From Patescibacteria group bacterium (GTDB lineage: Bacteria > Patescibacteriota > Microgenomatia > UBA1406): 64,000 nt of DNA. The translations under genes were made by a program, and so were the position numbers. The stretch covers positions 2,434-66,433 of the forward strand of contig JBAYJK010000004.1 in NCBI GenBank assembly GCA_041665145.1, in the 5' to 3' direction. Positions 12,988 to 41,454 of this stretch are shown here, piece by piece. Each line of letters starts with the position of its first letter. Positions within the stretch are counted from its first letter, which is position 1. The notes below the pieces were generated by a model that saw only the letters and a list, made by a program, of their open reading frames with translations, was not told the DNA's origin and did no database searches.

Positions 12988-15237
12988 ATGGCAAGCTGCC
13001 TACCCACCTCCCCCACATTTGCAGAACTTTTTAAAAAATACCGGTTGAGAAGTGAGATCGAAACATTGAATGATTTCGCGCAAGAAATGCAAAACCGCGG
13101 GTTGCAATATGAGGAAAGCATCTATTCGCACTGGCAAAGAGGAACAAGAATACCAAGAGACAGGAATCTTCTCCTAATTGTTATCAAAATATTTATCGAG
13201 AGAGGCGGTATTACAACTGCGAAGGAAGTAAATACTTTGCTCGAATCGGCAGAACAAGGGTATTTAACTGAAAAAGAAATAAATAAGCTTCCCAGAGAGT
13301 TACTGCCACAAGCGCCATTCTTGGCACCAAGAGAAATAAGATTATTTACTGGTCGAAAAGCCTTTTTAGAGGAAGCGGAAAAATATATATTAACTGGAAC
13401 TTCTTTGCTTATTTCTGGATGTGCAGGTGTAGGAAAATCGAGCTGTGCTATCAAGCTTGCACACAAGCTTGCAGAACATTTCCCTGATGGAGTACTTTGG
13501 TACCGCCTGGACACCTCAACGCCCGAATCAATACTTAACTCAATTGCATACACATATGGAGAAAACATTTCACAAACCCAAGATATTAATCATAAGTCAT
13601 CGTTCATCCGGTCGTTGTTATCAAAAAAAAGAGTATTAATTGTGTTTGACAACTTGGAACGTAGCTTCCCGTTGGACTTGCTGTTACCCAATTCAGATTC
13701 GTGCGTAGTACTAGTGACAACGCGAGACGAAGACCTGGCAGACAAATTCTCTTTAAAAAATTTGTCATTAGCTTCCTTTGATCAATGGGAAACGAAGTTG
13801 CTACAGAGGAGTATCTTAGGAGATGATTATGTTCAAAAGTATCATATCGAATTAGACGAGTTGTCCTTGTATTTGGGACATCTGCCACTTGCTGTCAACC
13901 TGATTGCTCACGAATTATGTAAACCATACCAACAACCAAAAAAATTACTAAAAAGGATAATTGCAAAAAAGCTTAAGCTCGCAGAACTTAAGTATGAGAA
14001 TCAAGATCTTTTATCATCACTTAACCTTGTCTATAATGCATTATCTGAAGAGGATAAAAAGCTTTTTGTAACTCTTGGAGTTTTCGCAGGTACCGACTTC
14101 GCGCTTGAGGCTGTAGCAGCAATAAATAATTTAAATAAAGACAGGACAGAAAAACAACTCAGGGACTTAATCAACTCTTCCCTCGTTGAATATTCGTCGA
14201 ATGACAGATTCCGATTACATCCAGTTATCAAATTTTTCGTTGAAGGCAAACTCAAGAACCAAACGATATATAAAAGAGCCGCCGAATACTATTATTTGCT
14301 TATGAAAAAGAAACGGAAAAAGATAAATTATTTTAAGCTTCTCAGCATAGAAACAATTAGCATTACTTGCGTATTTAAAAAATGCATCAAACTGAACTAC
14401 GCTGTTAACGTTGAAGCGCTCTGGACAGACCTCTTTTACTTCCTGTGGGACATGGGAGAGTGGAATTATGTTGAAAGCCTCGCAAAATTGACTTATGGTT
14501 TTGCTACTAAACATAATCATCATTACCTCAAAGCACTATGCTGCGTTGAAGGCCTTGGTTGGGTTTATTACTGGACTGGTAGAACCAATTTGGCAGTGGA
14601 TTACATACGGAAAGCACTTAGTATAGGTATAAAAACTAATAACGCATTTCTCATCGCTTATGCAAAACAAAGACTCGGCAGAACTTTGCAGGGCATAGGA
14701 AAGTTCAAGAAGTCTATGACTCTGCTCAAAGAGTCTTTGCAATATTTTAAGAAAGTTAAAGACTACCGAATTATTGGTAATAACTACAGGTACTTATCAG
14801 AAACATCGTCTTTTATGGGAAATAATACTCAAGCAAAAAAATATTTACACGAAGCACTTAACATCTTAAACAAATTTAAAAATAAATTTATATTAACGGA
14901 GATGTATAAGAACCTAATCAATGCTCATATAGGAGCTCTTTTGTTACTTGAAGGTAAAAATGATGAGGCTGAATTGTATTTTACCGAGGGCTTAAATATT
15001 GACACAAAGGCTGGAACAAAAACAGTAGGGTTGATGTGGAGCAATATCGGATTAGGTCTTGTTTTTGAAAAAAGGAATGATTTTATTAGAGCCAACCTGC
15101 ACTTTCAAAAAGCAAAAAAAATTATGAGTACTTTTAACCTAGGTAGAAATATAAAGAAACGCCACGTCTTTATCAATGTACTTTACGATGAACTTGGACA
15201 AAGCTGCTACTTACCCCGTGAATTCCTCACCACTTGA
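12988..15237 (+). CDS. HTH-NB-ARC-TPR STAND NTPase
   Basis: 749 aa. N-terminal HTH-like segment (LNDFAQEMQNRGLQYEESIYSHWQRG), P-loop GCAGVGKSS, Walker B VLIVFDNLE, and a C-terminal half of TPR-like repeats. TATAAT at 12974-12979, 8 nt before the ATG. Confidence 0.65.
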   Translation: MASCLPTSPTFAELFKKYRLRSEIETLNDFAQEMQNRGLQYEESIYSHWQRGTRIPRDRNLLLIVIKIFIERGGITTAKEVNTLLESAEQGYLTEKEINKLPRELLPQAPFLAPREIRLFTGRKAFLEEAEKYILTGTSLLISGCAGVGKSSCAIKLAHKLAEHFPDGVLWYRLDTSTPESILNSIAYTYGENISQTQDINHKSSFIRSLLSKKRVLIVFDNLERSFPLDLLLPNSDSCVVLVTTRDEDLADKFSLKNLSLASFDQWETKLLQRSILGDDYVQKYHIELDELSLYLGHLPLAVNLIAHELCKPYQQPKKLLKRIIAKKLKLAELKYENQDLLSSLNLVYNALSEEDKKLFVTLGVFAGTDFALEAVAAINNLNKDRTEKQLRDLINSSLVEYSSNDRFRLHPVIKFFVEGKLKNQTIYKRAAEYYYLLMKKKRKKINYFKLLSIETISITCVFKKCIKLNYAVNVEALWTDLFYFLWDMGEWNYVESLAKLTYGFATKHNHHYLKALCCVEGLGWVYYWTGRTNLAVDYIRKALSIGIKTNNAFLIAYAKQRLGRTLQGIGKFKKSMTLLKESLQYFKKVKDYRIIGNNYRYLSETSSFMGNNTQAKKYLHEALNILNKFKNKFILTEMYKNLINAHIGALLLLEGKNDEAELYFTEGLNIDTKAGTKTVGLMWSNIGLGLVFEKRNDFIRANLHFQKAKKIMSTFNLGRNIKKRHVFINVLYDELGQSCYLPREFLTT

Positions 15238-15262
15238 CTTAATACTATAGGTTATATATAAT
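15234..15262 (+). promoter_or_regulatory. promoter TTGACT-17-TATAAT for the methyltransferase gene
   Basis: TTGACT 15234-15239 (overlaps the STAND gene's TGA stop), 17-nt spacer, TATAAT 15257-15262 directly abutting ATG 15263. The next in-frame ATG (15272) lies 9 nt downstream. Confidence 0.6.
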
Positions 15263-16288
15263 ATGACCCTTATGCCTATGCCTAAAATAAACAGCACCAC
15301 AAAGACTGAGATGAATTTGAGTAACTGGTATACTAAACTAAAGATGCCAAAAGTAGCTTTACAGCAAGAAACAATATTACACTTGTTGTCTGCTCTCAAA
15401 GATAACAAAGCTAATTTGTTTGTGAGAGAAGCATACAAGGAACACTACATTCACCATTTCTATTCACGCCGGCACGCCATATTAGCTATGATCGAGGAGA
15501 TGTTCGGTCTTCTTAACGAAGCCGTCTCAAGTCGCTATCCTACAGAGGCCCTTAAAAGTGTAATTACTACAATTCCAGAAGACATTTTTAGAAATAAAGA
15601 GAGAACATTTTGGTTCAATCGAATGTACATGTACTACAAAAAATACACTCGAGCAGACTTGGAGTACCAACAAATTAAACCTTTCATTAAAGGAACTAAA
15701 ATATTAGATTTTGGTAGTGGGGCTGGATTTTTTTCCTTAAAACTTCAAGAAAACGAACTTGACGTTTCTTCTTGTGATGTCCTGGATTATCGAATCTCTG
15801 ATACAATACATATACCATTCAAACAGATGTACCAACCTACAACTATTGAATACAAAGATAAGTCTTTCGATACGATCACGGTCAAAGCAGTGCTTCATCA
15901 CATTGATCCTGAATATCTTCCTGCAATATTCTCAGAGCTTAAAAGAGTTGGGCATAGGATTATTATCGAGGAAACCGTGTATGGATTAGACAATAATATA
16001 GAAGGAGTTAACCTGCTGAGCAATAAACAATCCTTGCTATCTGAGTTTCTTAGATTAAATCTAAAGCAACAGAAAAATGCACTTATGATTATCGACTACA
16101 TAACAAACATACTTGTATTCGGAGAACAGAATATAAACATGCCCTTTGCCTACAAAACTCTACCTGAGTGGAGAAAAATACTGGAAGAAAATAATATTAG
16201 AGTTGTCACAATCGAACCACTTGGATTTGAGAAAGAAAGAGTTACTCCTGATTGTAGGGCTTTAATTGTATGCGAAACAATTAGTTAA
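15263..16288 (+). CDS. class I SAM-dependent methyltransferase
   Basis: 341 aa. Motif I ILDFGSGAGFFS, with downstream TVKAVLHHI and HRIIIEE blocks. The N-terminal ~140 aa are unassigned. The true start may be ATG 15272. Confidence 0.65.
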   Translation: MTLMPMPKINSTTKTEMNLSNWYTKLKMPKVALQQETILHLLSALKDNKANLFVREAYKEHYIHHFYSRRHAILAMIEEMFGLLNEAVSSRYPTEALKSVITTIPEDIFRNKERTFWFNRMYMYYKKYTRADLEYQQIKPFIKGTKILDFGSGAGFFSLKLQENELDVSSCDVLDYRISDTIHIPFKQMYQPTTIEYKDKSFDTITVKAVLHHIDPEYLPAIFSELKRVGHRIIIEETVYGLDNNIEGVNLLSNKQSLLSEFLRLNLKQQKNALMIIDYITNILVFGEQNINMPFAYKTLPEWRKILEENNIRVVTIEPLGFEKERVTPDCRALIVCETIS

Positions 16289-16863
16289 GAAACTTTATTT
16301 GCTTTCTGTTTATGCTCAATAATCAAGTTCCGAATAAACTTTGACTTTGTCACACCTAATTGTTTACTCGTCTCTTCCAAATACTCAAGTAATTTATCAC
16401 TAATAAAAAAGTTAAACCGTTTGTCCCGCTTCTCACTAGCTTGTTCCAATGCCTCCTCAAGCACTTCTTTAAGGTTTGTGTCTGTATAGCTGACTAACAA
16501 CAACTTTTCTTCGTCAGAACCACTTAGAAACAGAGGAGCACTGTTTTCAAAGTATAATAATATGGTAGGTTTGTTCATTTCTAGAGACTTCTTAATAACA
16601 AACCCTATTGATAAACTATGTTTAGACACTTCAAAAACATTTACGTCGGCTTCCTGCATACGATCAATTTCTTGGTTATAAAATTCGACCGAAGCCTCCC
16701 TACCACCCTCTTTGAAGTTCTTGTAAAAATCCTTAGTTTTAACAGACATTAGGTCATCGTCGAGTAGACGATAGCCTTTCTCCTTAATAATCGAGATGAT
16801 TTGTTTGTAATATTTTTCAAATTCTTCCTTCCCTCTCTGCGATGCGGTAAAAAATACTTTCAT
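16285..16863 (-). CDS. Rossmannoid (nucleoside 2-deoxyribosyltransferase-like?) domain fused to a ribbon-helix-helix tail
   Basis: 192 aa from ATG 16863 (TATAAT 16873-16878, 9 nt upstream). The 253-aa track ORF is an upstream extension that overlaps the RAYT gene. The N-terminal beta/alpha pattern KVFFTAS...ADVNVFEVS...KPTILLY gives only a weak family guess. The C-terminal KRFNFFISDKLLEYLEETSKQLGVTKSKFIRNLI is RHH/CopG-like. Confidence 0.4.
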   Translation of the reverse strand: MKVFFTASQRGKEEFEKYYKQIISIIKEKGYRLLDDDLMSVKTKDFYKNFKEGGREASVEFYNQEIDRMQEADVNVFEVSKHSLSIGFVIKKSLEMNKPTILLYFENSAPLFLSGSDEEKLLLVSYTDTNLKEVLEEALEQASEKRDKRFNFFISDKLLEYLEETSKQLGVTKSKFIRNLIIEHKQKANKVS

Positions 16864-16999
16864 ATACTTACCATTATACACAATGAAAAGCAAATCATCT
16901 GAGAAATACTCATGGCACATAATCGGATCATTGCAGCAATCTAAAGATACAGTTCTGTGGAACATATGCCGTGGCGCCAAACCTCTCACTCGCGTAACA

Positions 17000-17015
17000 T
17001 GAAGGGCGAGACCCT
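17000..17015 (+). repeat. 16-nt direct repeat flanking the RAYT gene (left copy)
   Basis: TGAAGGGCGAGACCCT is identical to 17673-17688 and contains the mini-hairpin AGGG-CGAGA-CCCT. Confidence 0.8.
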
Positions 17016-17018
17016 GAC

Positions 17019-17675
17019 ATGCCACAAAAAAATGTCCGCAAACCATACGTCGAAAACGGTTATTACCACATCTACAATCGTGGGGTAAATAAAGAGCTGA
17101 TCTTCTGCGATGAATCTGACTACCGCATGTTTCTTTTTATAGTAAAACTATATCTAATTCCGCCAGAAGAAGCTTTACGGCAACTCTCAAATAATCATTT
17201 CCCGCACCCACGGCATTTGGAGAATTTCCATAAACAGTTAACCGTAGTGGCTTTTTGCCTCATGCCAAACCACTTCCATTTTTTACTCCATCAAACAGAT
17301 CAAAAAACAATAATAAATTTCATGCACGCATTGAGCACCAAATACTCAATGTACTTTAATAAAAAATACGCACGGGTTGGGCCAATGTTTCAAGGTGCCT
17401 ATAAAGGAATTCTCATCGAGAATGACATGTATCTTTTATATCTTTCAAGTTATATTCATCGCAATCCCACTAAATACGTATCATACCCATTCTCTAGCTA
17501 TTCGTGGTTTTTAAAAAAATTAAGAAATGACTGGTTTGACCCTGGTGCTATTCTAGACTTCTTTTCCCAACGTTCTATTTTTATACCCAAAACTAGCGCG
17601 TCGTATCAATCTTTTGTGAGCAGTTACGATGGAGAGTGCGATGACAATCTAAAGCCCTTAACGTTTGAGGGCTGA
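17019..17675 (+). CDS. IS200/IS605-type Y1 (HUH) transposase / REP-associated tyrosine transposase (RAYT)-like
   Basis: 218 aa. HUH motif NHFHFLL and catalytic Tyr helix SYIHRNP; GYYHIYNRG N-terminus typical of the family. Confidence 0.75.
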   Translation: MPQKNVRKPYVENGYYHIYNRGVNKELIFCDESDYRMFLFIVKLYLIPPEEALRQLSNNHFPHPRHLENFHKQLTVVAFCLMPNHFHFLLHQTDQKTIINFMHALSTKYSMYFNKKYARVGPMFQGAYKGILIENDMYLLYLSSYIHRNPTKYVSYPFSSYSWFLKKLRNDWFDPGAILDFFSQRSIFIPKTSASYQSFVSSYDGECDDNLKPLTFEG

Positions 17676-17688
17676 AGGGCGAGACCCT
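17673..17688 (+). repeat. 16-nt direct repeat flanking the RAYT gene (right copy)
   Basis: TGAAGGGCGAGACCCT overlaps the RAYT stop codon and is identical to 17000-17015. Confidence 0.8.
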
Positions 17689-17696
17689 TACGGCTG

Positions 17697-18800
17697 CTAC
17701 TCCATGAAGTCGCGGTAGTTGCGGTCGTTGACGATGAATTTATTGCCCTCGCCGTTGAGCATTTTCCATGCAACGATACGGGCCATGCCCTCTACTTCCC
17801 GTTTAAGGGTACGAATTCCCGCATCAAACCCGAGCGGACGGATAAGCACCGGCCATACTTTTTCATCTATTTGCAGACTGTCCGGAGGAAGCCCCGCTTC
17901 TTTAATTGCATGCGGTAATAGGTATTCCCGTGCAATATGCAGCTTCTCATCATCCGTATATGACGGCATCTGAATGACTTCCATACGGTCCATGACCGCC
18001 GTTGCAACCTTCGCGACATTGTTTGCCGTCGCGACAAAAATGGCATCCGACAAATCAAACGGGTAGTCTATGTAGTGATCGACAAACGCTTGGTTCTGGG
18101 ACGGATCAAGAAGTTCAACCAACACACCCATAATTTCCTGCCGTTTTTCGTCTGAGACACGATCCAACTCGTCAAGAAGGATCACGGGGTTTTTGACATT
18201 CACCCTCCTGAGCGATTTCATGATTACTCCGGGTTCCGCTTCCGGATGAATACGGGACAAGCCCCGAAGATCCAATGCCGAGGCAAGTCCACCGAACGGT
18301 ATGCGAACCAGCTGTCGGTTTAGGGCTTCAGCAATGGATACTGCCATAGTGGTCTTTCCGGTGCCTACTAGTCCGACAAAACACAATATCGGCGAATGAA
18401 GATGCCCCGAGTATTGTGCAAGTTTCGTGATCTGTGTAAACTGTTCTGCGCCTTGTGATGAGCTTACCATATTTGCCAGATTTTGCTTCTTTTGGAGAAT
18501 GATGACGGAGAGAAATTCCAAGATACGCTTCTTGATGTTTTCAAGACCATAATGATTTTTATCGAAGATTTGTTTTGCTTTTTTGATGTCCAAAATGTCT
18601 TCGCTTTTTTTACTCCAGGGAAGATTTACCATCCATTCCACATAACTGTCCACCTGCTCATACGTCCCGAACCCCGCTCCGCCACCCATATGCAGGGCAT
18701 TTGCCAGGCGTTCGATTTGTTGCAGAAGTTTTGCCTCCAGCTCTTTGGCAAGATGCGCATTCAGGATTTTTTGCTTCAATTCCAGTACATGAGGATCCAT
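17697..18800 (-). CDS. Lon-type AAA+ module only (no LAN domain, no protease domain)
   Basis: 367 aa, collinear with the Lon AAA+ region: VEWMVNLPWS, NHYGLENIKKRILEFL, PILCFVGLVGTGKTT, LDELD, LLDPSQNQAFVDHY, MDRMEVIQMPSYT. The sequence ends before any Ser-Lys protease domain. TATACT 18809-18814, 8 nt before the ATG. Confidence 0.7.
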   Translation of the reverse strand: MDPHVLELKQKILNAHLAKELEAKLLQQIERLANALHMGGGAGFGTYEQVDSYVEWMVNLPWSKKSEDILDIKKAKQIFDKNHYGLENIKKRILEFLSVIILQKKQNLANMVSSSQGAEQFTQITKLAQYSGHLHSPILCFVGLVGTGKTTMAVSIAEALNRQLVRIPFGGLASALDLRGLSRIHPEAEPGVIMKSLRRVNVKNPVILLDELDRVSDEKRQEIMGVLVELLDPSQNQAFVDHYIDYPFDLSDAIFVATANNVAKVATAVMDRMEVIQMPSYTDDEKLHIAREYLLPHAIKEAGLPPDSLQIDEKVWPVLIRPLGFDAGIRTLKREVEGMARIVAWKMLNGEGNKFIVNDRNYRDFME

Positions 18801-23387: not shown

Positions 23388-23945
23388 CTACGGACCAAAA
23401 TGCGTTGGTCCGGGTGGGCTCCACCAGAGCTGCCACCCAGAACAACGCACCGTCTCCCAAACAACCCATGTGTATGGGCTGCAATTGGTGAGAGTGGCTG
23501 AATAACCGCCCCCCCACATATCCCATCGGGGCGTCCCGACAGCGGGATCCCCGGAATATGGGTCCTCCCGGTACCATTGGTTTGCAGGGAGCCTGCGGTA
23601 GTCATAAATCCCAGATTGACTACCGAACTCTTGCATGCTTACCTCTCCCGCCAGGGGAGTGTAAGCATGCTGCCCGAACTGGTAGTTACCTAACAGTTGG
23701 GATTCATTGGGAACCATGGTCGCACCTGGTGGTGGCAATTGCTCGGGCTGCGAAACACAGACCGAGCCATTCCACTGGGTTCCCTCGGGACAAGGGGCCC
23801 AGCAGGTCTGCCCGTCCCAGTTGTTCGGAACGGGACAATACGCCGGACGGTCATCGGCCAGGACAAGACCTTGTGGCGCCCCGAGCAGCGCCGCGACGAT
23901 AACTACAGCAACTACTCGGAGTAGTCGCTTCCACTTTGGGTTCAT
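23388..23945 (-). CDS. secreted Cys/Trp-rich hypothetical protein (G+C-rich gene)
   Basis: 185 aa, AGGAGG upstream, signal peptide RLLRVVAVVIVAALLGAPQGLVLA. Confidence 0.6.
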   Translation of the reverse strand: MNPKWKRLLRVVAVVIVAALLGAPQGLVLADDRPAYCPVPNNWDGQTCWAPCPEGTQWNGSVCVSQPEQLPPPGATMVPNESQLLGNYQFGQHAYTPLAGEVSMQEFGSQSGIYDYRRLPANQWYREDPYSGDPAVGTPRWDMWGGGYSATLTNCSPYTWVVWETVRCSGWQLWWSPPGPTHFGP

Positions 23946-23986
23946 CAGGCCTCCTTTTTCCCCCGCTCAGCGGGGGGATTTGATAT

Positions 23987-24634
23987 TTACCGATCGACCC
24001 AACGGCCGGAGCCGTACGGGTCGCACTGAATCGTTGGGTTTTGCGCGGGCGCCAATGCACCCGGCAGAACCATTTCTCGGGTTTCCCGGTACCAGCAAGA
24101 TTTTTGTACGAACTTGCTTTGGCCCAACGGCAAACCGTCAGGACCGAAGCACCCAACGGGACCGGGAAGGTCCACGAGCCCGGACTGGTCCCTCTGGTAC
24201 GCCCAGAGAGCACAGTCCTCTCGCTGCCACGCCCCCATGTATGATGGGAGCTTATCTTCCGGGATGAACTCCGGAAGAACTACGGGCGGCAAAGCAGTCG
24301 GCTGCGGCTGTACGGCTGGAAAGCCGTCTGGAGTCGGCGACGCTGCCGTCTCAAAAAATCCGGGGAACGACATCCCGGGCGCCGCCGTAATTACGATGAG
24401 CGGAACCTCAGTCTGCTCAGGTGTCGGCCAGAAACCTGGCGCCGCCACCGGCGGCAGCGTCGGAATGGCCTGAACGCCGGTAGATTGCGCCGGCTGCTGG
24501 GCCGGTGACGGCGTCCTCGGGGCATTCCCTTCGGACGCCACTACCACCAGCCCGAGAATCAGGCCGAATGTGACCACGGCTCGCCGTAGCGAGCCGAACA
24601 TCAATCTCAGTAACGCAGGTCCTGCTTTCTTCAT
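23987..24634 (-). CDS. secreted Pro-rich hypothetical protein (G+C-rich gene)
   Basis: Start moved to ATG 24634, which has AGGAGGTG at 24641-24648 (track start 24673). Signal/anchor helix followed by a P/A/T/Q-rich region. Confidence 0.6.
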   Translation of the reverse strand: MKKAGPALLRLMFGSLRRAVVTFGLILGLVVVASEGNAPRTPSPAQQPAQSTGVQAIPTLPPVAAPGFWPTPEQTEVPLIVITAAPGMSFPGFFETAASPTPDGFPAVQPQPTALPPVVLPEFIPEDKLPSYMGAWQREDCALWAYQRDQSGLVDLPGPVGCFGPDGLPLGQSKFVQKSCWYRETREMVLPGALAPAQNPTIQCDPYGSGRWVDR

Positions 24635-24738
24635 GTTATTCACCTCCTGTGCTCTTATAGATTTTTTTGTCAAGAGCCAGAGATTAGTAGTTTGGCGATT
24701 ACTAATTTCTGACTCTTAACTCTTTTCGAATACGTTTT

Positions 24739-24751
24739 CCTGTTAAAGAAC
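24739..24751 (-). promoter_or_regulatory. rrn-type boxA-like element in the 5' leader
   Basis: The minus strand reads TGTTCTTTAACAGG (E. coli rrn boxA is TGCTCTTTAACAA). It is preceded by the nested hairpin TGTACA..CCTGTCT..AGACAGG..TGTACA. Confidence 0.6.
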
Positions 24752-24821
24752 ATTTGTACAACAACACCTGTCTCAGCATAGCAAGACAGGACGCTGTACA
24801 AATTACACGATCAATGGGTGT

Positions 24822-24827
24822 ATTATA
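24822..24827 (-). promoter_or_regulatory. candidate -10 box (TATAAT) for the long-leader transcript of 23987-24634
   Basis: Minus-strand TATAAT in the context CTATAGTATAAT. The -35 is weak. Implies a ~185-nt leader. Confidence 0.4.
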
Positions 24828-24897
24828 CTATAGGAGCCTTATAGAAGCCTAAAGTAGGGATGATTGGTCTAAATGTCTGATTGTCTGAAGAGTCTTA

Positions 24898-25548
24898 CTA
24901 TTTTTCAACTTCCTGCCGTTTGGCTTCGATTATCGAACGAAGCTTCTCCATGGTTTCCGCTTCTTTGCCGGTTGCATTCAACAGCACATAATCGCAGTCT
25001 TCCGTCTGTTCTACTTCCCAGTTGGCAAGGGCAACGCTTGTTTTCATTACTTCTTCCGTCAGCTGATCTGCAGCGCGACGGTCCCTAATTCTTTTTTCAA
25101 GTTCCGCAATACTTTCAGGAACGATCATAACGATAAGGACATTCTTAAATAGCCGAATGGCTTTTTGCCGCACGTTCTTCATTCCGCGCACATCGATGCG
25201 CCAAATAACGTCTTTTCCCGATTTAAGCGCTTCTTCGACATGTTTCTTTTGGCCGCCCTTGTAATGGCCGAGATACTCCACCCACTCAATAAACCCGTCT
25301 TCCGCAATAAGTTTTTCAAATTCGTCACGACTGACAAAGTAGTAGTCTTTACCCTCGATTTCACCATCACGCATCGGTCGGGAGTTGGTTGTTATGAGAT
25401 GAACGGCGTCGGGATATTTTGCAAGATACCCGTCCATGACTGTATCTTTGCCCGCACCCGTCGGGCCGGTAAGAATCACAAGAATATTTTTGGATTTCTG
25501 ATTGTTTGCGACTTCGAATGCATTCATGACCATGGGATATGGTAACAC
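24898..25548 (-). CDS. gmk: guanylate kinase
   Basis: P-loop GPTGAGKD and SRPMRDGEIEGKDYYFVSRDEF signature. The track start is GTG 25548; ATG alternatives are at 25533 and 25527. Confidence 0.75.
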   Translation of the reverse strand: MLPYPMVMNAFEVANNQKSKNILVILTGPTGAGKDTVMDGYLAKYPDAVHLITTNSRPMRDGEIEGKDYYFVSRDEFEKLIAEDGFIEWVEYLGHYKGGQKKHVEEALKSGKDVIWRIDVRGMKNVRQKAIRLFKNVLIVMIVPESIAELEKRIRDRRAADQLTEEVMKTSVALANWEVEQTEDCDYVLLNATGKEAETMEKLRSIIEAKRQEVEK

Positions 25549-25662
25549 ATACGAATCAAAAGTTTCAAGGCTTAATGTTTAAGGCAATTAAGTCTTACTG
25601 ACTTACGACTTGAAAATTGAATAGAAATTAGAAATTGAGAATTAAAAATTAATTTTGTGTAT

Positions 25663-25694
25663 GTGGAGCTGCGCCGGACAGGGCGCAGCTCCAC
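25663..25694 (-). terminator. 13-bp G+C-rich hairpin at the 3' end of the LysM gene (no U-tract)
   Basis: GTGGAGCTGCGCC 25663-25675 pairs with GGCGCAGCTCCAC 25682-25694. No T-run follows on the minus strand. Confidence 0.45.
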
Positions 25695-25717
25695 GGTTTC
25701 GGCCGCACGAGAGAGGG

Positions 25718-26374
25718 CTAGGGCATCAGGGGGAAGTTGTCCCCCGCAACACATACCCAGTCATCCTGGGATGTAATTTGATACCCCCGAATTTGGTTGT
25801 TCCCGTCATAAAACTCGACGGTTACAACCAGTCCGCCCTTTTGGGCGGACCACTTCCAGAGGGCAATTTCTTGCCCTCGATTGTCAAGAGGCGGGTTGCC
25901 CACAACCGCCTCAAGACTGTACGCGTCAGCTTTCAGCCAGATGCGCTGAAACGCGCCGATCCGGCTGCACTCGGCCACCGAGCCAAGTGAGAAATGCTCA
26001 TTTGTCCCCGACTTCTTCGTCGGGACGGTGAATGTGGCCGGGATGCACAAGTTGCGCCCGGCCTCGACGTAGTTGGCGTTGTCGATCCCATTGATGCGGA
26101 CCAACGACGCCAAAGAGACGCTCTCGGCTTGGGCGATGCCGAGGAGCGTCTCCCCGCTTAAAACCTTGTGCCTCTTGGCACAGATCGAGGCGGTTTTCGT
26201 CGGTTGCGGCTGCGCCGTAGGCTGAGGCACAACCTGGGCGGCAACTGCGGCAGTTGCCGGGGGGGTCTGTCCACCCCCACTCGGCGCCACGCTGAGCGTG
26301 GGAGCCGCCGCCGGTGCACAGGCCGACAGCCATATCGCCGCGCACAGCGCGGCCACCAACTTCAACACGTTCAT
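25718..26374 (-). CDS. secreted LysM-domain protein (G+C-rich gene)
   Basis: 218 aa, GAAGGAGG upstream. Signal peptide, A/P/T/Q linker, and LysM motif HKVLSGETLLGIAQAESVSLASLVRINGIDNANYVEAGRNLCIP. Confidence 0.7.
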   Translation of the reverse strand: MNVLKLVAALCAAIWLSACAPAAAPTLSVAPSGGGQTPPATAAVAAQVVPQPTAQPQPTKTASICAKRHKVLSGETLLGIAQAESVSLASLVRINGIDNANYVEAGRNLCIPATFTVPTKKSGTNEHFSLGSVAECSRIGAFQRIWLKADAYSLEAVVGNPPLDNRGQEIALWKWSAQKGGLVVTVEFYDGNNQIRGYQITSQDDWVCVAGDNFPLMP

Positions 26375-26440
26375 TTTCTTCCTCCTTCAAATTTCTCGCC
26401 TACACAGGCGAGTCTGAAATAAAGATGATTTCTTGAATCT

Positions 26441-26465
26441 GGATCCCCGCTTCCGCGGGGATGAC
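26441..26465. repeat. partial copy of the GGATCCCCGC..GCGGGRATGAC hairpin element
   Basis: GGATCCCCGCTTCCGCGGGGATGAC; compare GGATCCCCGCCTACGCGGGAATGAC at 41357-41380. Confidence 0.6.
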
Positions 26466-26533
26466 AACCAATAGACTGACAGCACTTGAAAACACCCTTA
26501 TCTCAGACTTCCTGTAAGACAAGATTCGTGCGG

Positions 26534-26546
26534 CCTGTTAAAGAAC
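26534..26546 (-). promoter_or_regulatory. rrn-type boxA-like element in the LysM-gene leader
   Basis: The minus strand reads GGTTCTTTAACAGG, preceded by the hairpin GCGCGCC..GGCGCG. Confidence 0.6.
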
Positions 26547-26606
26547 CAGTTTCTAGGCGCATATATCGCGCCATGCATAACAGGCGCGCATACGTACCGT
26601 ATATGT

Positions 26607-26635
26607 ATTTTATCCTATAGTTAGCAGAAAATCAA
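26607..26635 (-). promoter_or_regulatory. promoter TTGATT-17-TAAAAT for the LysM gene (about 225-nt leader)
   Basis: Minus-strand TTGATT 26630-26635, 17-nt spacer containing CTATAGGA, TAAAAT 26607-26612. Confidence 0.5.
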
Positions 26636-26833: not shown

Positions 26834-28510
26834 TTATTTTCCCCGTAAATCTTCGGGGCAACCTCGTTCCGCATTGGCATTCGTCGTCCATCCGAACCCG
26901 GGCTCTACCATCGACGTACCGTCGCTCGACCGAGTGACCGGATACCGCGAACCCTGCATGGAAGCGTCAAAATAACCAAATGAGGCTCCAAACGGCATGG
27001 GGGCGGGATACAAAACCAAACGCATATTGCGGGAAAACCCTACCGACCATGAGCCGTCAGACTGTTTGGTACAGTAGACGTTGACCGTATCAGGGAGATC
27101 GACCCATTCCTGCTTATGCCCAGCAAGCCCGCGCATGGGATCCGGGTTAACGAGGTGCACCATTTGCGTTGCCGAAACGAAGATATATCCGTCACGACGG
27201 GTCACGGAAATACGGATCGGTTGCCCATCGGACCCGTGACTATTGGGGCCCATACTGGAAAAAACAGAACCAAGGGCTGCTGCTTTACTAGTGAGCAAAT
27301 CATATGCAAGGCCGAGGATATCGGTGCGGTGGGGCCATTTGAGGGGTATGGTCCGGCCGTCGAGACCGATAACGAATGCATATTCACCTGTTACGGTATC
27401 TTTCAGCGTAAATTCGTCAAATACGGGAGCTGCCGGTTCGGGAACTTTTGTCGGATCTGGAGCTTTCGGTTGAGCTGTGGGTGTTGCAACTGTCGGTGTT
27501 GTGTCAGAAGGGAGGCAATAAGTTGAAGATGTTAGACCCGGAAGAATTCTTGTTTTACTTACTGGAGGATTTGTTGACCAGTCTGCATGCCCGTTCGTAC
27601 ATATAAGATAAGCTGTTGGTCCGCCATCATTCCGTTTTATGTACATAAGTAATCCACTCGCCTGTTCACCATAGGGAATTGAATTATCACCGGTATACCG
27701 GTATCCATTGAAATCAAAGTTCATAAGAAACTGGTTGCCTCTTCCAGGTATGTAAGCGCTAACCGCGTTTCCATTGTGTCGGTACACTCCATCGGTTGCT
27801 CCTTGCTCCGGCCGTACATCTGGTACAAATGTTGGTTGAACTGTTGGTGCGGTCTCCGGGACAAATTGTGCTCCTGTGGGAGTTGCACCGGGAACAGGTT
27901 CAAATCGGGGATACCCTGGTAGAAGTCTGCAATCGGAATCATACTTTAAGTACTCGCCGGTCATGTTTTGATTCCACTCTCCATTTCCCCGACAGAATAC
28001 ACCTCCGGCGGCAATCGTATAATCGCCTGCATTAAAACCCATACACCCTCCGAAAATTCCTAAGTCAATGTAACAGGTACTGCCGTTTTGTTGAACGGGT
28101 AAATGAGAGACACCAAACAAATGAGCGAGGTCAGGACTTAACGCCATCATATACGACGCATTCCCGAGGTCGCTCAACTGGGGTTGGTTATGTTGCTGCG
28201 CGACTGCTTGATATGCTCCAAAGGCGAGCGCTCCGGCAGCAAGACGAACTATTCCATGCGCAATCTTTCGTAGTCTTTCCTCTTGTTTTCGCTTTTCTGT
28301 TTCTTCAACGTGTAATCTGTTTTGATTGAGGAGACTTCTTGTGCGAGCCGTTTGGTATAACGGAGAATTTGCTTCGCTGGGATAATCAAAATTCCATACG
28401 CCGGAATAACGATCGTCTGTCGGCACCGTTACATTTGGCGATACTCTGCCGTAATTCAATTGAGGATTGTTAACCGAAACCGGGTGTGCACCCGTTTCTA
28501 TGTTTGGCAT
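26834..28510 (-). CDS. hypothetical single-pass membrane protein with a large extracytoplasmic domain
   Basis: Start moved to ATG 28510, because the track ORF's first 39 codons run through the groEL terminator. About 100 aa N-terminal, TM helix IVRLAAGALAFGAYQAVA, and a P/T-rich linker. Confidence 0.6.
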   Translation of the reverse strand: MPNIETGAHPVSVNNPQLNYGRVSPNVTVPTDDRYSGVWNFDYPSEANSPLYQTARTRSLLNQNRLHVEETEKRKQEERLRKIAHGIVRLAAGALAFGAYQAVAQQHNQPQLSDLGNASYMMALSPDLAHLFGVSHLPVQQNGSTCYIDLGIFGGCMGFNAGDYTIAAGGVFCRGNGEWNQNMTGEYLKYDSDCRLLPGYPRFEPVPGATPTGAQFVPETAPTVQPTFVPDVRPEQGATDGVYRHNGNAVSAYIPGRGNQFLMNFDFNGYRYTGDNSIPYGEQASGLLMYIKRNDGGPTAYLICTNGHADWSTNPPVSKTRILPGLTSSTYCLPSDTTPTVATPTAQPKAPDPTKVPEPAAPVFDEFTLKDTVTGEYAFVIGLDGRTIPLKWPHRTDILGLAYDLLTSKAAALGSVFSSMGPNSHGSDGQPIRISVTRRDGYIFVSATQMVHLVNPDPMRGLAGHKQEWVDLPDTVNVYCTKQSDGSWSVGFSRNMRLVLYPAPMPFGASFGYFDASMQGSRYPVTRSSDGTSMVEPGFGWTTNANAERGCPEDLRGK

Positions 28511-28522
28511 GGTATTGGGGGG

Positions 28523-28552
28523 ATTATAGCACCGTACATATCCGATATGCAA
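28523..28552 (-). promoter_or_regulatory. promoter TTGCAT-18-TATAAT
   Basis: Minus-strand TTGCAT 28547-28552 and TATAAT 28523-28528, 12 nt before ATG 28510. Confidence 0.55.
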
Positions 28553-28553
28553 C

Positions 28554-28586
28554 AAAAAAGGCCCCGGCTTTCGCCGGGGTCTTTTT
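28554..28586 (-). terminator. intrinsic terminator of groESL (bidirectional shape)
   Basis: GGCCCCGGC 28560-28568 pairs with GCCGGGGTC 28573-28581, flanked by an A-run and a T-run. On the minus strand the stem is followed by TTTTTT. Confidence 0.8.
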
Positions 28587-28652
28587 AACTTTTTACCATT
28601 CAATTTTCTTTTGTACGGACAAGGCATGCCTTGTCCCTACGCACAGAATGTT

Positions 28653-36943: not shown

Positions 36944-38452
36944 CTAGCGCGAGACGAGAGGAATGTAATTGTAGTATTCGACACTGCAGGCAAACGTTTT
37001 CCACCCGGATACCGCGCTAAAATCCGCGGCGGCGGCAATCCGCAGCTGCCCTGCATCGCAGCTCTTGACAGTCATGGTGGCCGTCAATCCATTGTTCACC
37101 AACGTCGCAAATTGAGCGCCGTACCAGTTCATCGATTGACCTTCCTGCAGGCTAATGCCATTGCCATACGCGTCGAACAGGTCGGCGCGAAGGCTGTAGC
37201 TCTGGCCAGGATGGACCGTGGTCAACCCCTCGGGGACCGAGTCGATAACGATCGACGCCAGCTTCGCCGGCAGAACGGTAAATGACAACGTCGCCGCCGT
37301 CTCGCAACCATACCGGTTACAGGCCGTGACATTTGCCACGTATTGTCCCGCAACGGTGATTGTGGTCGTCGCCCAGTTTCCGTACTGAACCATAGTTGTT
37401 CCCGTGATCGCGAACGTCCAGGTAACGCCCGATTGCGTCGAGCTCAAGCCAGCGGCGCATGTAATTACTTCGCCGGCTTTTTTACCGTCGTCGCACGCTG
37501 CGACCAGACCCTCAATGGGCTGGGGCAACTCGACATACATCGGCGACACCGCCGGCAAGCCGGCAGAGGCGTTCGACGTCGTAAACAACGTGCGGGTCAT
37601 CCCACTCTGAAAAAACTGGATGACCTCGCGGTCCGGGACATAGCTGCTCGGGGACAGTCCTACGCAGAATCCATTATTGCAGTTCGGCTGGAAAGTCGTG
37701 GTCACTAACACACGGCTTGGGTTGCCCGCTCGATACACATGCGTATCGGGACCAGCTTTTGCTTCGTAAACAAGACCGCCCGCGTCGTCGAACGCGGGAA
37801 AGTTCTGGTCATTGCCTACATCGGCCGGGGCATACCAGCTCCCGGGCGCACCCGGGACTTGTTGCCGAATTGCGTAAATATAGCTGTAGCGGCAACTTGC
37901 CGCAATCAGTCCGCCGGGCACCCAACTCGGGTTCCGGCATGCGGCGAATGAAGCATCAACTCGGGCAACATTACTCAGCGTTACGTTGCTGTCCGATACT
38001 ACCAGACTAGCAGTCATAAGATGGTTCGTCTGACCGTCTCCAACGGCCTGAACAAAAACCATCTTTTTGGTAAGCCGATCGATCGCCGGCATGTAGCCGG
38101 TAATCCCCAACGTCTGGGTCAGCCCGGTCCAGATATCGTAAACGGCCAACTCCTGGTCCAACCAGCTGATTTTGCTATACACAACGTACCTGGTGTCCAG
38201 CCACGTCGGCCGGCTCGAGAGAGATTCCGACGTCGTCAGGATGTTCCCAACCGAGTCATGCACCTCGAGAAAGCCAGACTCATTCATGAGCGCCACTGTG
38301 GGCGTGATGCCCCACATCGATTGCGGTCCCGCGCTCAGCGCGGCTGCCGTCTGAGCATTCCCGCCCAGCAAGGTAACAGACAAAACGATTGCCAACAACG
38401 CGGCTGCGGCCATCGTGGCCGCCAACAGATGGGTGAAACGAGTCTTGTTCAT
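36944..38452 (-). CDS. secreted beta-propeller/Ig-like surface protein, paralogue 1 (G+C-rich)
   Basis: Start moved to ATG 38452 with AGGAGGAGGG upstream (track start 38608). The signal peptide MNKTRFTHLLAATMAAAALLAIVLSVTLLGGNAQTAAALSAGP is homologous to the N-terminus of 39082-41094. Confidence 0.65.
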   Translation of the reverse strand: MNKTRFTHLLAATMAAAALLAIVLSVTLLGGNAQTAAALSAGPQSMWGITPTVALMNESGFLEVHDSVGNILTTSESLSSRPTWLDTRYVVYSKISWLDQELAVYDIWTGLTQTLGITGYMPAIDRLTKKMVFVQAVGDGQTNHLMTASLVVSDSNVTLSNVARVDASFAACRNPSWVPGGLIAASCRYSYIYAIRQQVPGAPGSWYAPADVGNDQNFPAFDDAGGLVYEAKAGPDTHVYRAGNPSRVLVTTTFQPNCNNGFCVGLSPSSYVPDREVIQFFQSGMTRTLFTTSNASAGLPAVSPMYVELPQPIEGLVAACDDGKKAGEVITCAAGLSSTQSGVTWTFAITGTTMVQYGNWATTTITVAGQYVANVTACNRYGCETAATLSFTVLPAKLASIVIDSVPEGLTTVHPGQSYSLRADLFDAYGNGISLQEGQSMNWYGAQFATLVNNGLTATMTVKSCDAGQLRIAAAADFSAVSGWKTFACSVEYYNYIPLVSR

Positions 38453-38564
38453 TTTAATCGCCCTCCTCCTGAGGGGTGCTGCGTTACTAAAATTTATTAG
38501 TCCAGTTTTGTGCCTACTTCTCCCAAGCACACAAGGGGCCCATTTAGGGTCAGAGAGCAGAAAG

Positions 38565-38700
38565 AGAAAACTCAAAATCCAAATATACAAATGACAAATG
38601 AAGCACAAAATTCAAATATTAATCATATATTGGAATTTTTTTAGTTTTTAAATTTCAATTGAATTTTGTCATTTGAATTTTGAATTTGTTATTTTCCCAT
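38565..38700. repeat. 'word' palindrome (CAAATGACAAATG family) inside the paralogue-1 leader
   Basis: CAAATGACAAATGAAGCACAAAATTCAAAT faces ATTTGAATTTTGTCATTTGAATTTTGAATTTG. Related words occur at 41255-41310 and 31935-32045. Confidence 0.5.
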
Positions 38701-38751
38701 ATTTCCTCCTCTCCAACCCTAAATGGTCGTTTAATTTTTGTTGCTCTTTGG

Positions 38752-38764
38752 GATGTTAAAGATC
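38752..38764 (-). promoter_or_regulatory. boxA-like element in the paralogue-1 leader
   Basis: The minus strand reads AGATCTTTAACATCC, immediately followed by CAAAGAGCAAC. Confidence 0.5.
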
Positions 38765-38828
38765 TAATCTCTTCGAGCCCATAATAATCCAGCAATTAGG
38801 ATTGTTTGGACTCAAGTTATATCCTATA

Positions 38829-38857
38829 ATTGTATACATACTGCGTGCGTATGTCAA
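38829..38857 (-). promoter_or_regulatory. promoter TTGACA-17-TACAAT (paralogue 1)
   Basis: Minus-strand TTGACA 38852-38857 and TACAAT 38829-38834. The leader is about 375 nt. Confidence 0.7.
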
Positions 38858-39081: not shown

Positions 39082-41094
39082 CTAGCGTAGAGCGAGGGGG
39101 AGGAAGAGGGTATGCGGCGGGCGGCACTCGAGCGCCCAGGGCGCCGACACCGACGTGCCCGTCGCGGTCATCGTGCCGGTCAACATCTTGCCGGGCAAGC
39201 AGACGGGCGCATGCAAAACACCGGCGTCGTCGAACGAGCCTGATCCTTCGTCGGCCAACCAGGTAATCGGCCAGATGATCAGCACGCCGTACTGGTTAAA
39301 CACTTCGCCGTAGCTCTGAATCGAGCCACTCGAGTATACCCAGTTGGCGCTCGGGAAGCCGCCATGAATGCGCCCGGGCAGGCCCCAGATCACTTCGACC
39401 GTGGCCGTGCCCGTCACATTACTATAGCTGGCCGAAAGCTCGTGCGACCCCGCCGTATAGCAACTCAGAATCGAGCCCACGACGTTGCAGTCGGCGGGTA
39501 CGGTCACATCAAAGTCGCCGATGTTGCTGGTGACAATGTTACCGTATTGATCGAGCGCCTTGATCGTCGCCGTCACAGGCTGCCCAGCCTCGATAGGCGA
39601 GGGCAAATCCCACGTAACGCTGACCGTGGGGCCGGGCAGGAAGGTCACGGTGTTCGTCGTGACTAAACTACCAAAACCTGCCGTAATCACGACCGATTCC
39701 GCTACAGTATCGGTTACCGCAACCTTACTGCAGGTCGCGTGGCCGGAGCAGGTTACCGCAATCCATTCCGAGTTGCCTTCTACGATCAAGTTCATGAACT
39801 GATCGTAGATTGTGGTCCACATCGGAACAGACTGCCCAGCCGTAGCCACAGTCGTCGAGAAATCCGTATGGACATACGTCCACATGTTCGGGTATGTTTC
39901 GAACGGCGCGTAGCCGCTCTTGCACCCGAACCGGTTGCAGGCATCAACCACAGCGGTCAAGTGCCCCGCGGCCGTGATAACGGCCGTCACATCCTGCCCA
40001 GACAACACTGTGTTGTGAGGCAGATGCCACGTGTAGCTGACATCAGCCTGCTCAGGCAACACCGTCGCGCTAAACGTGACTGTCACGGGAACTTGTTGCG
40101 CATGTGGCCCCGCGTCCGCCACTGCGATCACCTGCGTGATCGGCTGGGGAACGTGGTATTCACCGTGGCTCAGCATTGGCCCGGAGAACGTCACACTGTT
40201 TGTCGCAATTGTACTGGTCAGACCCATCCTCGTATCGAGAAGGACGAGTTCAGCTGCCGGCGCGCTTGTCGTCCAGACGCACCAGTAGTTGACACAATTC
40301 GGATAGTACCCTAATGCAATCGCGGCGGCCGTTCCCGTAATCGTCTGGGAGTAGATCTTCCCATCGCTCGCGAACAGTAGGTGGCCGTCAGGACTAAACG
40401 TTGGGCTCGTATGCGATCCGACAACGTTTTGATCACTGACCGTTGCCCAGGTTCCATCTTGCACCTGGCAACGTATGTCAATGTTGTTAAAGACGTACTC
40501 TTGTGTCACGCATAGACGGCCGGTCGTCGGGTCGATAGCCGGGTCAAATGCCCCCGACCACATTGCGTCGGTAACCTGGACTCGCGTCGTCGTAATCGGC
40601 GTACCGCCTTCGAAAGTGACATTGGAAGTATAGATCTGATTCTGATTCCAGCCCCAGGCAACCTGGGACTGATACACCAGAATCGTCCCCGAGAAGACGG
40701 GCTTTGTGCCCGTCAAACCCAGAGAAACAGTGACGCCCGTGTTGGTGTTGTATGCGACCAACAGCGGGAGATTTCCCGTTTGCGGGACGGGGCAGACATT
40801 CCATTGGTCGTCTGCAGACCACGCGCAGCGCGCATTCGCGCCCACGACGGTTGCCGTTTGCACGCCGGAAGAATCGAGGAGACTGGCACTGATAACGCCG
40901 GTCATCCGGATAAAGCTTACGGCCGGCGTGTATTCCGTCGTGTTCGCCACGGCGGTCAAATTCGAGTTCGGTCCGGCCGAAGCGGCCGAGACCGTCTGAG
41001 CAGACCCGCCCAGCAAGGTAACAGACAAAACGACCAACGCGACTGCGGCCACTATAGGCGCCAACAAACGAGCAAAACGATTAGTCTTGGACAT
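39082..41094 (-). CDS. secreted beta-propeller/Ig-like surface protein, paralogue 2 (G+C-rich)
   Basis: 670 aa, AAGGAGAAGGG upstream. Signal peptide MSKTNRFARLLAPIVAAVALVVLSVTLLGGSAQTVSAASAGP. Shares blocks with paralogue 1 (e.g. ACNRYGCETA / ACNRFGCKSG). Confidence 0.7.
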   Translation of the reverse strand: MSKTNRFARLLAPIVAAVALVVLSVTLLGGSAQTVSAASAGPNSNLTAVANTTEYTPAVSFIRMTGVISASLLDSSGVQTATVVGANARCAWSADDQWNVCPVPQTGNLPLLVAYNTNTGVTVSLGLTGTKPVFSGTILVYQSQVAWGWNQNQIYTSNVTFEGGTPITTTRVQVTDAMWSGAFDPAIDPTTGRLCVTQEYVFNNIDIRCQVQDGTWATVSDQNVVGSHTSPTFSPDGHLLFASDGKIYSQTITGTAAAIALGYYPNCVNYWCVWTTSAPAAELVLLDTRMGLTSTIATNSVTFSGPMLSHGEYHVPQPITQVIAVADAGPHAQQVPVTVTFSATVLPEQADVSYTWHLPHNTVLSGQDVTAVITAAGHLTAVVDACNRFGCKSGYAPFETYPNMWTYVHTDFSTTVATAGQSVPMWTTIYDQFMNLIVEGNSEWIAVTCSGHATCSKVAVTDTVAESVVITAGFGSLVTTNTVTFLPGPTVSVTWDLPSPIEAGQPVTATIKALDQYGNIVTSNIGDFDVTVPADCNVVGSILSCYTAGSHELSASYSNVTGTATVEVIWGLPGRIHGGFPSANWVYSSGSIQSYGEVFNQYGVLIIWPITWLADEGSGSFDDAGVLHAPVCLPGKMLTGTMTATGTSVSAPWALECRPPHTLFLPLALR

Positions 41095-41380: not shown

Positions 41381-41454
41381 ACTATACTTGTGTAATTTCA
41401 TAAAATCCTCCTCTCCAACCCCAAGCGGGTTGTTAAAATTTTGTTGCTCTTTGG

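Follow-up and report, generated by a model that had tools for sequence, protein, structure and literature searches.

Candidate antitermination sites outside the rRNA operon: rRNA-type boxA motifs in the structured leaders of G+C-rich secreted-protein genes of a Microgenomates bacterium

Introduction

Why should a signal of the ribosomal RNA (rRNA) operon recur in front of genes for secreted proteins? The question is raised by a 64-kb stretch of DNA (the window; contig JBAYJK010000004.1 of assembly GCA_041665145.1) from a Patescibacteria group bacterium, in which four messenger RNA (mRNA) leaders carry on their sense strand a motif resembling the boxA of the tRNA-Ala/23S spacer in the same window. 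An original prediction had read these motifs as sites of processive antitermination dependent on NusB and NusE, recruited to shield foreign-looking, G+C-rich surface-protein genes from premature termination, possibly by Rho. The antitermination signal of rRNA (rrn) operons consists of boxB, boxA and boxC and is recognised by NusB and NusE together with NusA, NusG, SuhB and S4. Nus complexes directed by boxA were long viewed as dedicated to rRNA and lambdoid phages. To our knowledge, few targets in mRNAs or in arrays of clustered regularly interspaced short palindromic repeats (CRISPR) are known, and most of them are in Proteobacteria. In our literature search, no paper connected the candidate phyla radiation with boxA, Nus factors or leaderless mRNAs.

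We read the window together with 9.8 kb on one flank and 2.5 kb on the other (about 76 kb in all); a copy of the contig is held in IMG as 3300037810 Ga0376277_0000024. On balance, and by a small measure, we think it probable that the leader motifs are genuine boxA elements that would load a Nus-type complex and carry RNA polymerase through long untranslated leaders.

Results

Exact boxA copies in four leaders and in the 23S spacer

The motifs quoted in the original prediction were all present, at coordinates off by 1-2 nt at most (Table 1; leaders are numbered 1 to 4 by position). Their core, TCTTTAACA, matched six times in the window against 0.83 expected, and none of 100 dinucleotide-preserving shuffles reached six matches. 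The extended form GWTCTTTAACA has exactly five copies in the window, every one of them in the 23S spacer or an mRNA leader and in sense orientation, and it had no match in 579 kb of unrelated bacterial loci. When independent upstream regions (leaders and spacer) were compared in pairs, the longest common substring was boxA itself in six of nine pairs; the other three (leaders 2 and 3, leaders 2 and 4, leader 4 and the 23S spacer) shared other strings, with lengths within the range of shuffles. The flanks of 9.8 kb and 2.5 kb contained no additional boxA and no 16S or 5S gene.

Functional boxA elements outside rRNA have been identified in gamma-proteobacteria with the consensus GYTCTTTAANA (PMC5725501). 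The boxA of leaders 1 and 2, GTTCTTTAACA, fits it perfectly (11/11), and those of leaders 3 and 4 and of the 23S spacer, GATCTTTAACA, deviate at position 3 alone in the numbering used for NusB/NusE. Among the bases of UGCUCUUUA, G2, C5 and U6 are said to be critical for NusB/NusE binding, U8 and A9 are contact bases as well, and transversions at G2 are reported not to be tolerated (PMC3177189). All five copies retain G2, C5, U6, U8 and A9. The spacer boxA (53301-53311) equals that of leaders 3 and 4 over 11 nt and that of leaders 1 and 2 over TCTTTAACAGG. With two copies fitting the gamma-proteobacterial consensus, two equal to the genome's own 23S-spacer boxA, and G2, C5 and U6 kept throughout, the assignment of the leader motifs to the boxA type holds.

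The sixth core match (40485-40493), which reads ACGTCTTTAACAA, was rejected as a boxA: it falls within the 670-aa ORF and carries C at G2 when aligned to UGCUCUUUA. Separately, this internal core is followed (40485-40510) by TTGACATACG, ten bases that recur as the -35 region in the promoters of leaders 3 and 4. The sharing may be a coincidence or a trace of recombination.

The spacer copy as reference

The boxA between tRNA-Ala and 23S follows a hairpin whose stem (GGGTAGTAGT...ACTACCC) is invariant in an alignment across four related genomes, and the orthologous site in one of them, L095, reads TGCTCTTTAACAGG, the E. coli sequence. Because it stands after a conserved hairpin between these two genes and its orthologous site in L095 is canonical, the spacer copy is, judged by sequence and position, a bona fide rRNA boxA. 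The arrangement of tRNA-Ala and 23S, divergent from yidC, is the same in the four relatives (L095, L096, L098 and L099). As a side observation, a predicted promoter of its own and tRNA-Ala precede the 23S gene, and a protein gene ends 22 nt past 23S; no 16S or 5S gene was found beside 23S or in the 10 kb downstream.

Four leaders with one plan

All four leaders share a common plan in which a predicted promoter is followed by a 5' hairpin, boxA, a long hairpin, a strong GGAGG-type Shine-Dalgarno (SD) sequence and AUG. The leaders are about 180, 225, 370 and 430 nt long. Their boxA motifs lie about +56 to +66 from the predicted start sites, outside open reading frames (ORFs) and on the sense strand in every case; the 5' hairpins span 35-52 nt, and about 95-350 nt, with a large hairpin between, separate boxA from the functional SD sequence. 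All promoters and start sites are predictions from the sequence. A consensus scan scored three of the promoters at 12/12, 11/12 and 9/12; in the fourth, TATAAT is perfect and the -35 box weak. Promoters upstream of the leaders, long leaders and strong SD sequences had all been claimed earlier and were borne out. A hairpin just before boxA, as in rrn operons, had been described for the first two leaders only; the order stands, and the restriction falls, as all four leaders have one.

Table 1. Positions of the leader elements, the genes behind them and the rRNA unit in the window (SD, Shine-Dalgarno; GC3, G+C fraction at third codon positions; MFE, minimum free energy; z, folding score relative to shuffles)
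Feature	Position	Strand	Remarks
Transcription unit 1 (leader 1)	23388-24634	-	
185-aa Cys/Trp-rich secreted protein gene	23388-23945	-	GC3 0.60
215-aa Pro/Ala-rich membrane-anchored protein gene	23987-24634	-	GC3 0.68; SD GGAGG 24643-24647
Leader 1 second hairpin, boxA-SD interval	24669-24720	-	whole leader z = -5.7; sense 12 kcal/mol stabler than antisense
Leader 1 motif TGTTCTTTAACAGG	24752-24739	-	
Leader 1 boxA GTTCTTTAACA	24741-24751	-	about +66; perfect GYTCTTTAANA
Leader 1 5' hairpin, boxB-like position, abuts boxA	24752-24803	-	MFE and centroid folds; z = -3.8 (82-nt 5' fragment)
Leader 1 -10 box TATAAT, predicted	24822-24827	-	read from sequence; absent from consensus scan, poor -35
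LysM lipoprotein gene (leader 2)	25718-26374	-	lipobox LSAC; GC3 0.74; strong SD GAAGGAGG
Leader 2 long hairpin	26388-26528	-	z = -5.4; sense 22 kcal/mol stabler; G.U pairs 12 vs 2 antisense
Half copy of palindromic repeat CCCGCGGAAGCGGGGATCCAG, apex of leader 2 hairpin	26439-26459		
Leader 2 motif GGTTCTTTAACAGG	26547-26534	-	
Leader 2 boxA GTTCTTTAACA	26536-26546	-	about +56; perfect GYTCTTTAANA
Leader 2 5' hairpin	26556-26598	-	fold prediction
Leader 2 promoter, predicted	26607-26635	-	TTGATT, 17-nt spacer, TAAAAT; 9/12
502-aa secreted PKD/Ig-like protein gene (leader 3)	36944-38452	-	true start ATG 38452; SD AGGAGGAGGG; GC3 0.66
Leader 3 long hairpin, 187 nt	38540-38726	-	z = -6.1
Leader 3 motif AGATCTTTAACATCC	38765-38751	-	
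Leader 3 boxA GATCTTTAACA	38754-38764	-	about +60; equals 23S-spacer boxA
Leader 3 5' hairpin	38773-38815	-	fold prediction
Leader 3 promoter, predicted	38829-38857	-	TTGACA, 17-nt spacer, TACAAT; 11/12
670-aa secreted protein gene (leader 4)	39082-41094	-	PKD/Ig-like C-terminal repeats, orphan N-terminal 400 residues; GC3 0.71
Leader 4 long hairpin	41229-41428	-	z = -8.7
Leader 4 hairpin-apex insert, palindromic, mobile-element-like	41293-41400	-	
Intrinsic-terminator-like hairpin and T-run within leader 4 insert, 3' of boxA	41339-41315	-	
Leader 4 motif AGATCTTTAACATCC	41469-41455	-	
Leader 4 boxA GATCTTTAACA	41457-41467	-	about +60
Leader 4 5' hairpin	41480-41514	-	fold prediction
Leader 4 promoter, predicted	41532-41560	-	TTGACA, 17-nt spacer, TATAAT; 12/12
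tRNA-Ala/23S unit promoter, predicted	52968-52996	+	TTGACA, 17-nt spacer, TATAAT, read from sequence
tRNA-Ala(TGC)	53126-53201	+	
Spacer hairpin, boxB-like position	53233-53264	+	z = -5.0
23S-spacer motif GATCTTTAACAGG	53301-53313	+	
Spacer boxA GATCTTTAACA	53301-53311	+	reference copy for this genome
23S rRNA gene, complete	53481-56371	+	

Folding of the whole leaders against shuffles gave z = -5.7, -5.4, -6.1 and -8.7 for leaders 1 to 4. The sense strand was 12-28 kcal/mol stabler than the antisense strand and had 1-10 more G.U pairs. Such sense-strand-specific folding indicates structure at the level of RNA rather than DNA, and so argues for transcription of the leaders and for selection acting on the RNA. 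The probability of being unpaired was 0.43-0.55 for boxA and 0.33-0.40 on average for the leaders. None of the leaders reached the threshold of an Rfam family; the insert of leader 4 scored well below threshold to WsnRNA46 and FtrB.

These features bear on whether the motif might instead be a DNA operator, at which a transcription factor would co-regulate the rRNA unit and the secreted-protein genes. The sites do lie at a fixed distance downstream of promoters, and leader 1 contains a short dyad, TGTT-CTTT-AACA. However, the other copies (GATCTTTAACA) have no dyad, all five copies face the same way with respect to transcription, and operators seldom lie 56-66 bp downstream of the start. As the sense-strand-specific structure around the motif also points to a role in RNA, we regard an operator as very improbable.

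Leaders 3 and 4 are about 95% identical over a stretch of about 200 nt that starts at the -35 box and extends as far as the long hairpin's 5' arm. A mini-ORF or leader peptide (an SD sequence and MGK-stop in leader 3) was considered for both and rejected: what looks like an SD sequence belongs to the 190-200-nt hairpin, as its purine-rich arm, and the ORFs are not the same in the two copies.

G+C-rich genes behind the boxA leaders and leaderless genes elsewhere

The genes behind the four leaders differ in composition from the rest of the window. GC3 is 0.60-0.74 in the five boxA-led genes and 0.35-0.54 in the other 40 ORFs, consistent with the earlier description of these genes as G+C-rich. 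The association is one to one: all five GC3-rich genes, in four transcription units, are boxA-led, and none of the 40 other ORFs is. All five products are secreted or membrane-anchored. The shift in composition falls at the start codon, the leaders themselves having 35-47% G+C. No Pfam match was found for the two proteins of unit 1. The 670-aa protein (NCBI locus tag WC775_04650) and the 502-aa protein are paralogues that are 30% identical despite the roughly 95% identity of the upstream portions of their leaders.

Many other genes lack an SD sequence and carry a -10-like box (TAnnnT, frequently after TGn) that ends 4-11 nt 5' of the ATG. By a strict pattern, 14 of 44 genes are of this leaderless type, with more visible by eye, and the same is seen in the relatives L095 and L098. 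This suggests that leaderless mRNAs may be widespread in this Microgenomates clade. The original prediction, in which most other genes look leaderless, is therefore borne out for many of them, 14 of 44 being the minimum under the strict pattern. SD sites are found chiefly at the boxA-led genes and at a few internal operon genes. Apart from the boxA leaders, no long untranslated mRNA stretch was seen in the window; a 343-nt region (51601-51943) 5' of the 1553-aa gene contains two small ORFs, one apparently leaderless, and is not a long untranslated leader, and it has no boxA.

An insertion into a conserved backbone

To judge by the GroEL and VirB4-like proteins, the genome belongs to the Microgenomates, with metagenome-assembled genomes labelled Roizmanbacteria as nearest relatives. 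Synteny is kept in the relatives recovered with VirB4 (78-85% identity), and the PKD genes are missing from them. Four related genomes (VirB4 identity 80-85%) share a backbone in the order 23S/tRNA-Ala, YidC, a large protein, PrgI, TraC-like, VirB4, (MFS), RimM-like and TrmD, and further on RNase H, GroES and GroEL. In all four, VirB4 directly precedes the MFS or RimM-like gene. Because this syntenic slot is empty in the four relatives, the 4.7-kb segment with both PKD genes and their leaders is an insertion. The N-terminal 400 residues of the PKD proteins had no homologue beyond each other in an exhaustive search of 1.84 billion representative proteins. Absence from the syntenic slot and an orphan N-terminal region both agree with the earlier view of these genes as foreign-looking.

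A possible source is suggested by L095 (Logan SRR5321242 contig 0; VirB4 identity 85%), which has 53% G+C, GC3 of 0.6-0.8 throughout and A+T-rich intergenic DNA. A donor of this type could explain how GC3-rich genes came to be joined to A+T-rich leaders. The genes were probably acquired as whole cassettes of promoter, leader and gene, possibly from a GC3-rich relative. The other relatives have 33-43% G+C against 53% in L095, a wide swing in composition within the clade, and L095 itself has an outlier in the opposite direction, a gene at 7550-8365 with GC3 of 0.26. Among the relatives examined for orthologous leaders, those found with GroEL (at most 77% identity) are distant, A+T-rich and non-syntenic. 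Scanning genome contigs for relatives with guanylate kinase gave nothing above 38% identity, and a metagenome scan with the leader 19-mer GATCTTTAACATCCCAAAG gave two unrelated chance matches, in a collection that does not hold the window's own contig. As for strain variation, the copies in Logan, ENA and JGI are all 100% identical.

Other features of the window

The long hairpin of leader 4 carries at its apex a palindromic, mobile-element-like repeat (GTCATTCCCGCGTAGGCGGGGATCCAG...), and that of leader 2 has half a copy of the repeat in the same place (Table 1). A gene for an IS200/Y1-type transposase (17019-17675) might mobilise such palindromic repeats. It belongs to a low-G+C stretch (13000-17700; 0.35-0.39) that also encodes an NB-ARC/TPR STAND-type NTPase and a methyltransferase, which may be a separate acquired or defence-related island. 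Genes resembling those of type IV secretion systems (2847-5222 and 41640-45366) encode a VirD4-like coupling protein, a VirB4-like ATPase, a TraC-like protein and a PrgI-family protein, and belong to the conserved backbone. Just past groEL, a bidirectional terminator hairpin (28555-28627) falls within the first 25 codons of a 597-aa ORF (26834-28627). Because a strong terminator hairpin would lie in its first 25 codons, the real start of this gene is probably further downstream.

Discussion

How an antitermination role would work, and what weighs against it

In the reading that we favour, RNA polymerase starting at a sigma-70-type promoter would first transcribe the 5' hairpin and reach boxA after about 56-76 nt. 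A dimer of NusB and S10 (NusE) would bind the single-stranded boxA and, with NusA and NusG, render the polymerase resistant to termination and pausing. The modified polymerase would then cross the folded, untranslated leader of about 180-430 nt, including, in leader 4, the inserted terminator-like hairpin, until a ribosome loads at the strong SD sequence. In leaderless genes, which have no boxA, the ribosome would follow the polymerase from the first nucleotide. Long boxA leaders would thus meet the same problem as rRNA and CRISPR-array transcripts.

Several findings weigh against this reading. First, the spacer boxA is not strictly kept in relatives, reading TGCACCTTAACAAG in L098 and, in degenerate form, CGTAAATTAAGCGG in L096, while the spacer hairpin is invariant. 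As boxA is less constrained than the hairpin, dependence on boxA may be relaxed in this clade, and the hairpin may be the more important signal there. Second, the accessibility of boxA exceeds the leader average by a modest margin. Third, nusB, nusA, nusG, rpsJ and rho are all absent from the approximately 76 kb read, and in a published survey of nusB the sole Microgenomates entry is "No", that of Candidatus Saccharimonas aalborgensis being "Yes" (PMC7665894 supplement). Fourth, orthologous leaders were not found in any collection searched. Fifth, the count of GWTCTTTAACA with one mismatch (7 against 3.2 expected) is not above chance, and the copies of leaders 3 and 4 (38.7 kb and 41.4 kb) share one recent, 95%-identical duplicated module. 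Finally, G equals or exceeds C in the coding regions, and the leaders are not C-rich and G-poor, so there are no obvious Rho substrates; neither the genes nor most leader windows showed a bias of C over G.

The fifth point qualifies the enrichment of the motif within the window and raises the question of chance. Exact copies are enriched and in one orientation, but the enrichment is gone at one mismatch, so that only exact copies of GWTCTTTAACA are informative; and because leaders 3 and 4 carry their copies in a duplicated module, the independent occurrences number four, not five. Could a chance resemblance, inflated by the duplicated segment, then suffice? With two copies derived from one 95%-identical duplication and a one-mismatch count at background, the idea deserves mention. 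Against it stand four independent exact 11-mers where close to zero are expected, all in sense orientation in leaders, and their perfect tie to GC3-rich, SD-led genes, which make chance extremely improbable.

The last point concerns the rationale rather than the element. Protection of G+C-rich genes from Rho, as originally suggested, is not supported by base composition, since G equals or exceeds C in these genes and the leaders are not C-rich and G-poor. A simpler reason for boxA would be the long untranslated leader itself, in a genome with many mRNAs that are apparently translated from the 5' end. Of the antitermination proposal, motif type, strand, distance from the promoter and order of hairpin and boxA stand at the level of sequence, and the Rho rationale does not.

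Possible alternatives to antitermination, and an extension of it

Some of the same findings would suit a leader module in which Nus factors have no part. The motif might act in processing or stability, as an entry site for RNase III or RNase E/Y beside the long stems, or be recognised by some other RNA-binding protein, and its likeness to boxA would reflect descent from the spacer or convergence on a U-rich single strand. Every leader contains long double-stranded stems of the RNase III type, the rRNA spacer of the relatives keeps the hairpin far better than boxA, and nusB is not among the genes in the sequence read. Yet two 11/11 fits to an independently derived gamma-proteobacterial consensus, with all NusB/NusE contact bases kept, are hard to reconcile with a role unrelated to Nus, and descent from the spacer is unlikely because the flanks of boxA are unrelated between leaders. 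We consider such a module unlikely.

A further reading keeps the Nus factors and inverts their effect. In suhB, boxA represses by inhibiting translation, which is followed by Rho termination, and the complex prevents or promotes termination according to context (PMC5725501, PMC12360218). If the leader motifs acted in this way, Nus factors bound at boxA would hinder translation initiation and lead to Rho termination, and expression would be low and tied to the supply of Nus factors and ribosomes. The motif evidence for this is the same as for antitermination. The geometry differs: the suhB boxA lies 6 nt from the SD sequence (PMC5725501), and here boxA is about 95-350 nt upstream of it with a large hairpin between. 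Promoters scoring 12/12 and 11/12 and strong SD sequences also look suited to high expression, not silencing. Repression of the suhB kind therefore seems to us decidedly unlikely.

The antitermination reading has an extension to which we give tentative and rather doubtful standing. An rRNA-mimicking leader of hairpin, boxA and RNase III-type stem might be a portable cassette through which foreign genes that need an SD sequence can be expressed in a host with largely leaderless mRNAs. As has been proposed for rRNA, the Nus complex would then have a second role, tethering the 5' end close to the polymerase, so that the long stem could fold and processing could yield an mRNA that is stable and translatable.

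If antitermination at these leaders is true, it would extend the mechanism to the candidate phyla radiation. It would also connect the mechanism with secreted proteins specific to the lineage, which probably play a part in the cell-surface biology of these tiny bacteria, themselves likely to depend on a host. A single genome in which many genes are leaderless and have no boxA, and the few long, SD-led leaders all have it, would be a clean natural test of the idea that boxA protects untranslated RNA. In addition, uncultured genomes could be screened with boxA and the leader plan for surface-protein genes that are highly expressed or acquired.

Comparison with known boxA systems

The leaders resemble the rrn signal itself in several ways. 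The core is shared (E. coli TGCTCTTTAACAA; here TGTTCTTTAACAGG, GGTTCTTTAACAGG and AGATCTTTAACATC), a hairpin precedes boxA a few tens of nucleotides past the promoter, and a reference copy is present in the genome's own tRNA-Ala/23S spacer. By contrast, the leaders serve mRNAs for secreted proteins instead of rRNA, no GT-rich element resembling boxC was seen in them, and boxA is followed by a long hairpin and an SD sequence in place of the rRNA processing stalk.

In the nut site of phage lambda, boxA is followed by boxB, which is bound by the N protein. As there, boxA in the leaders adjoins a hairpin early in the transcript, antitermination would serve horizontally mobile genes, and a large stem precedes the first SD sequence. 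A nut site of the lambda type was nevertheless rejected: the order is reversed, with the hairpin 5' of boxA in all four leaders, and no phage genes are nearby. Unlike in lambda, there is also no N-like protein nearby, and the hairpin sequences vary among the leaders.

For the proposed role, the leaders of suhB and of CRISPR arrays come closest as precedents. The boxA elements in 5' untranslated regions of suhB and other gamma-proteobacterial genes (Baniulyte et al. 2017, PMC5725501) likewise have protein-coding, non-rRNA targets, and leaders 1 and 2 fit the consensus used to search for them. Those sites were defined within 50 nt of the start codon, and the one of suhB represses (PMC5725501); the present ones lie about 95-350 nt 5' of the SD sequence, in another phylum and at accessory genes for secreted proteins. 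Upstream of CRISPR arrays, boxA stands early in a long untranslated RNA that would otherwise be open to premature termination (Stringer et al. 2020, PMC7665894), the logic proposed here, and protects that RNA from Rho (PMC7665894). That study also validated unusual boxA variants against the rRNA boxA of the same species (PMC7665894), which is the comparison made here with the 23S spacer. The difference is that what is untranslated here is a 5' leader spanning a few hundred nucleotides, with a translated gene after it, whereas a CRISPR array is non-coding.

A functional analogy may be drawn with RfaH and its ops element and with LoaP, in which a signal encoded in the leader directs processive antitermination of acquired genes for surface or secreted products (PMC12360218). 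There, a NusG paralogue reads non-template DNA or another RNA element, whereas the leaders described here carry the general boxA of rRNA. Control of non-rRNA transcripts by boxA is established and predicted to be widespread; what the present leaders probably add is new members in a new phylum, a new class of genes and a distinctive plan shared by all four leaders.

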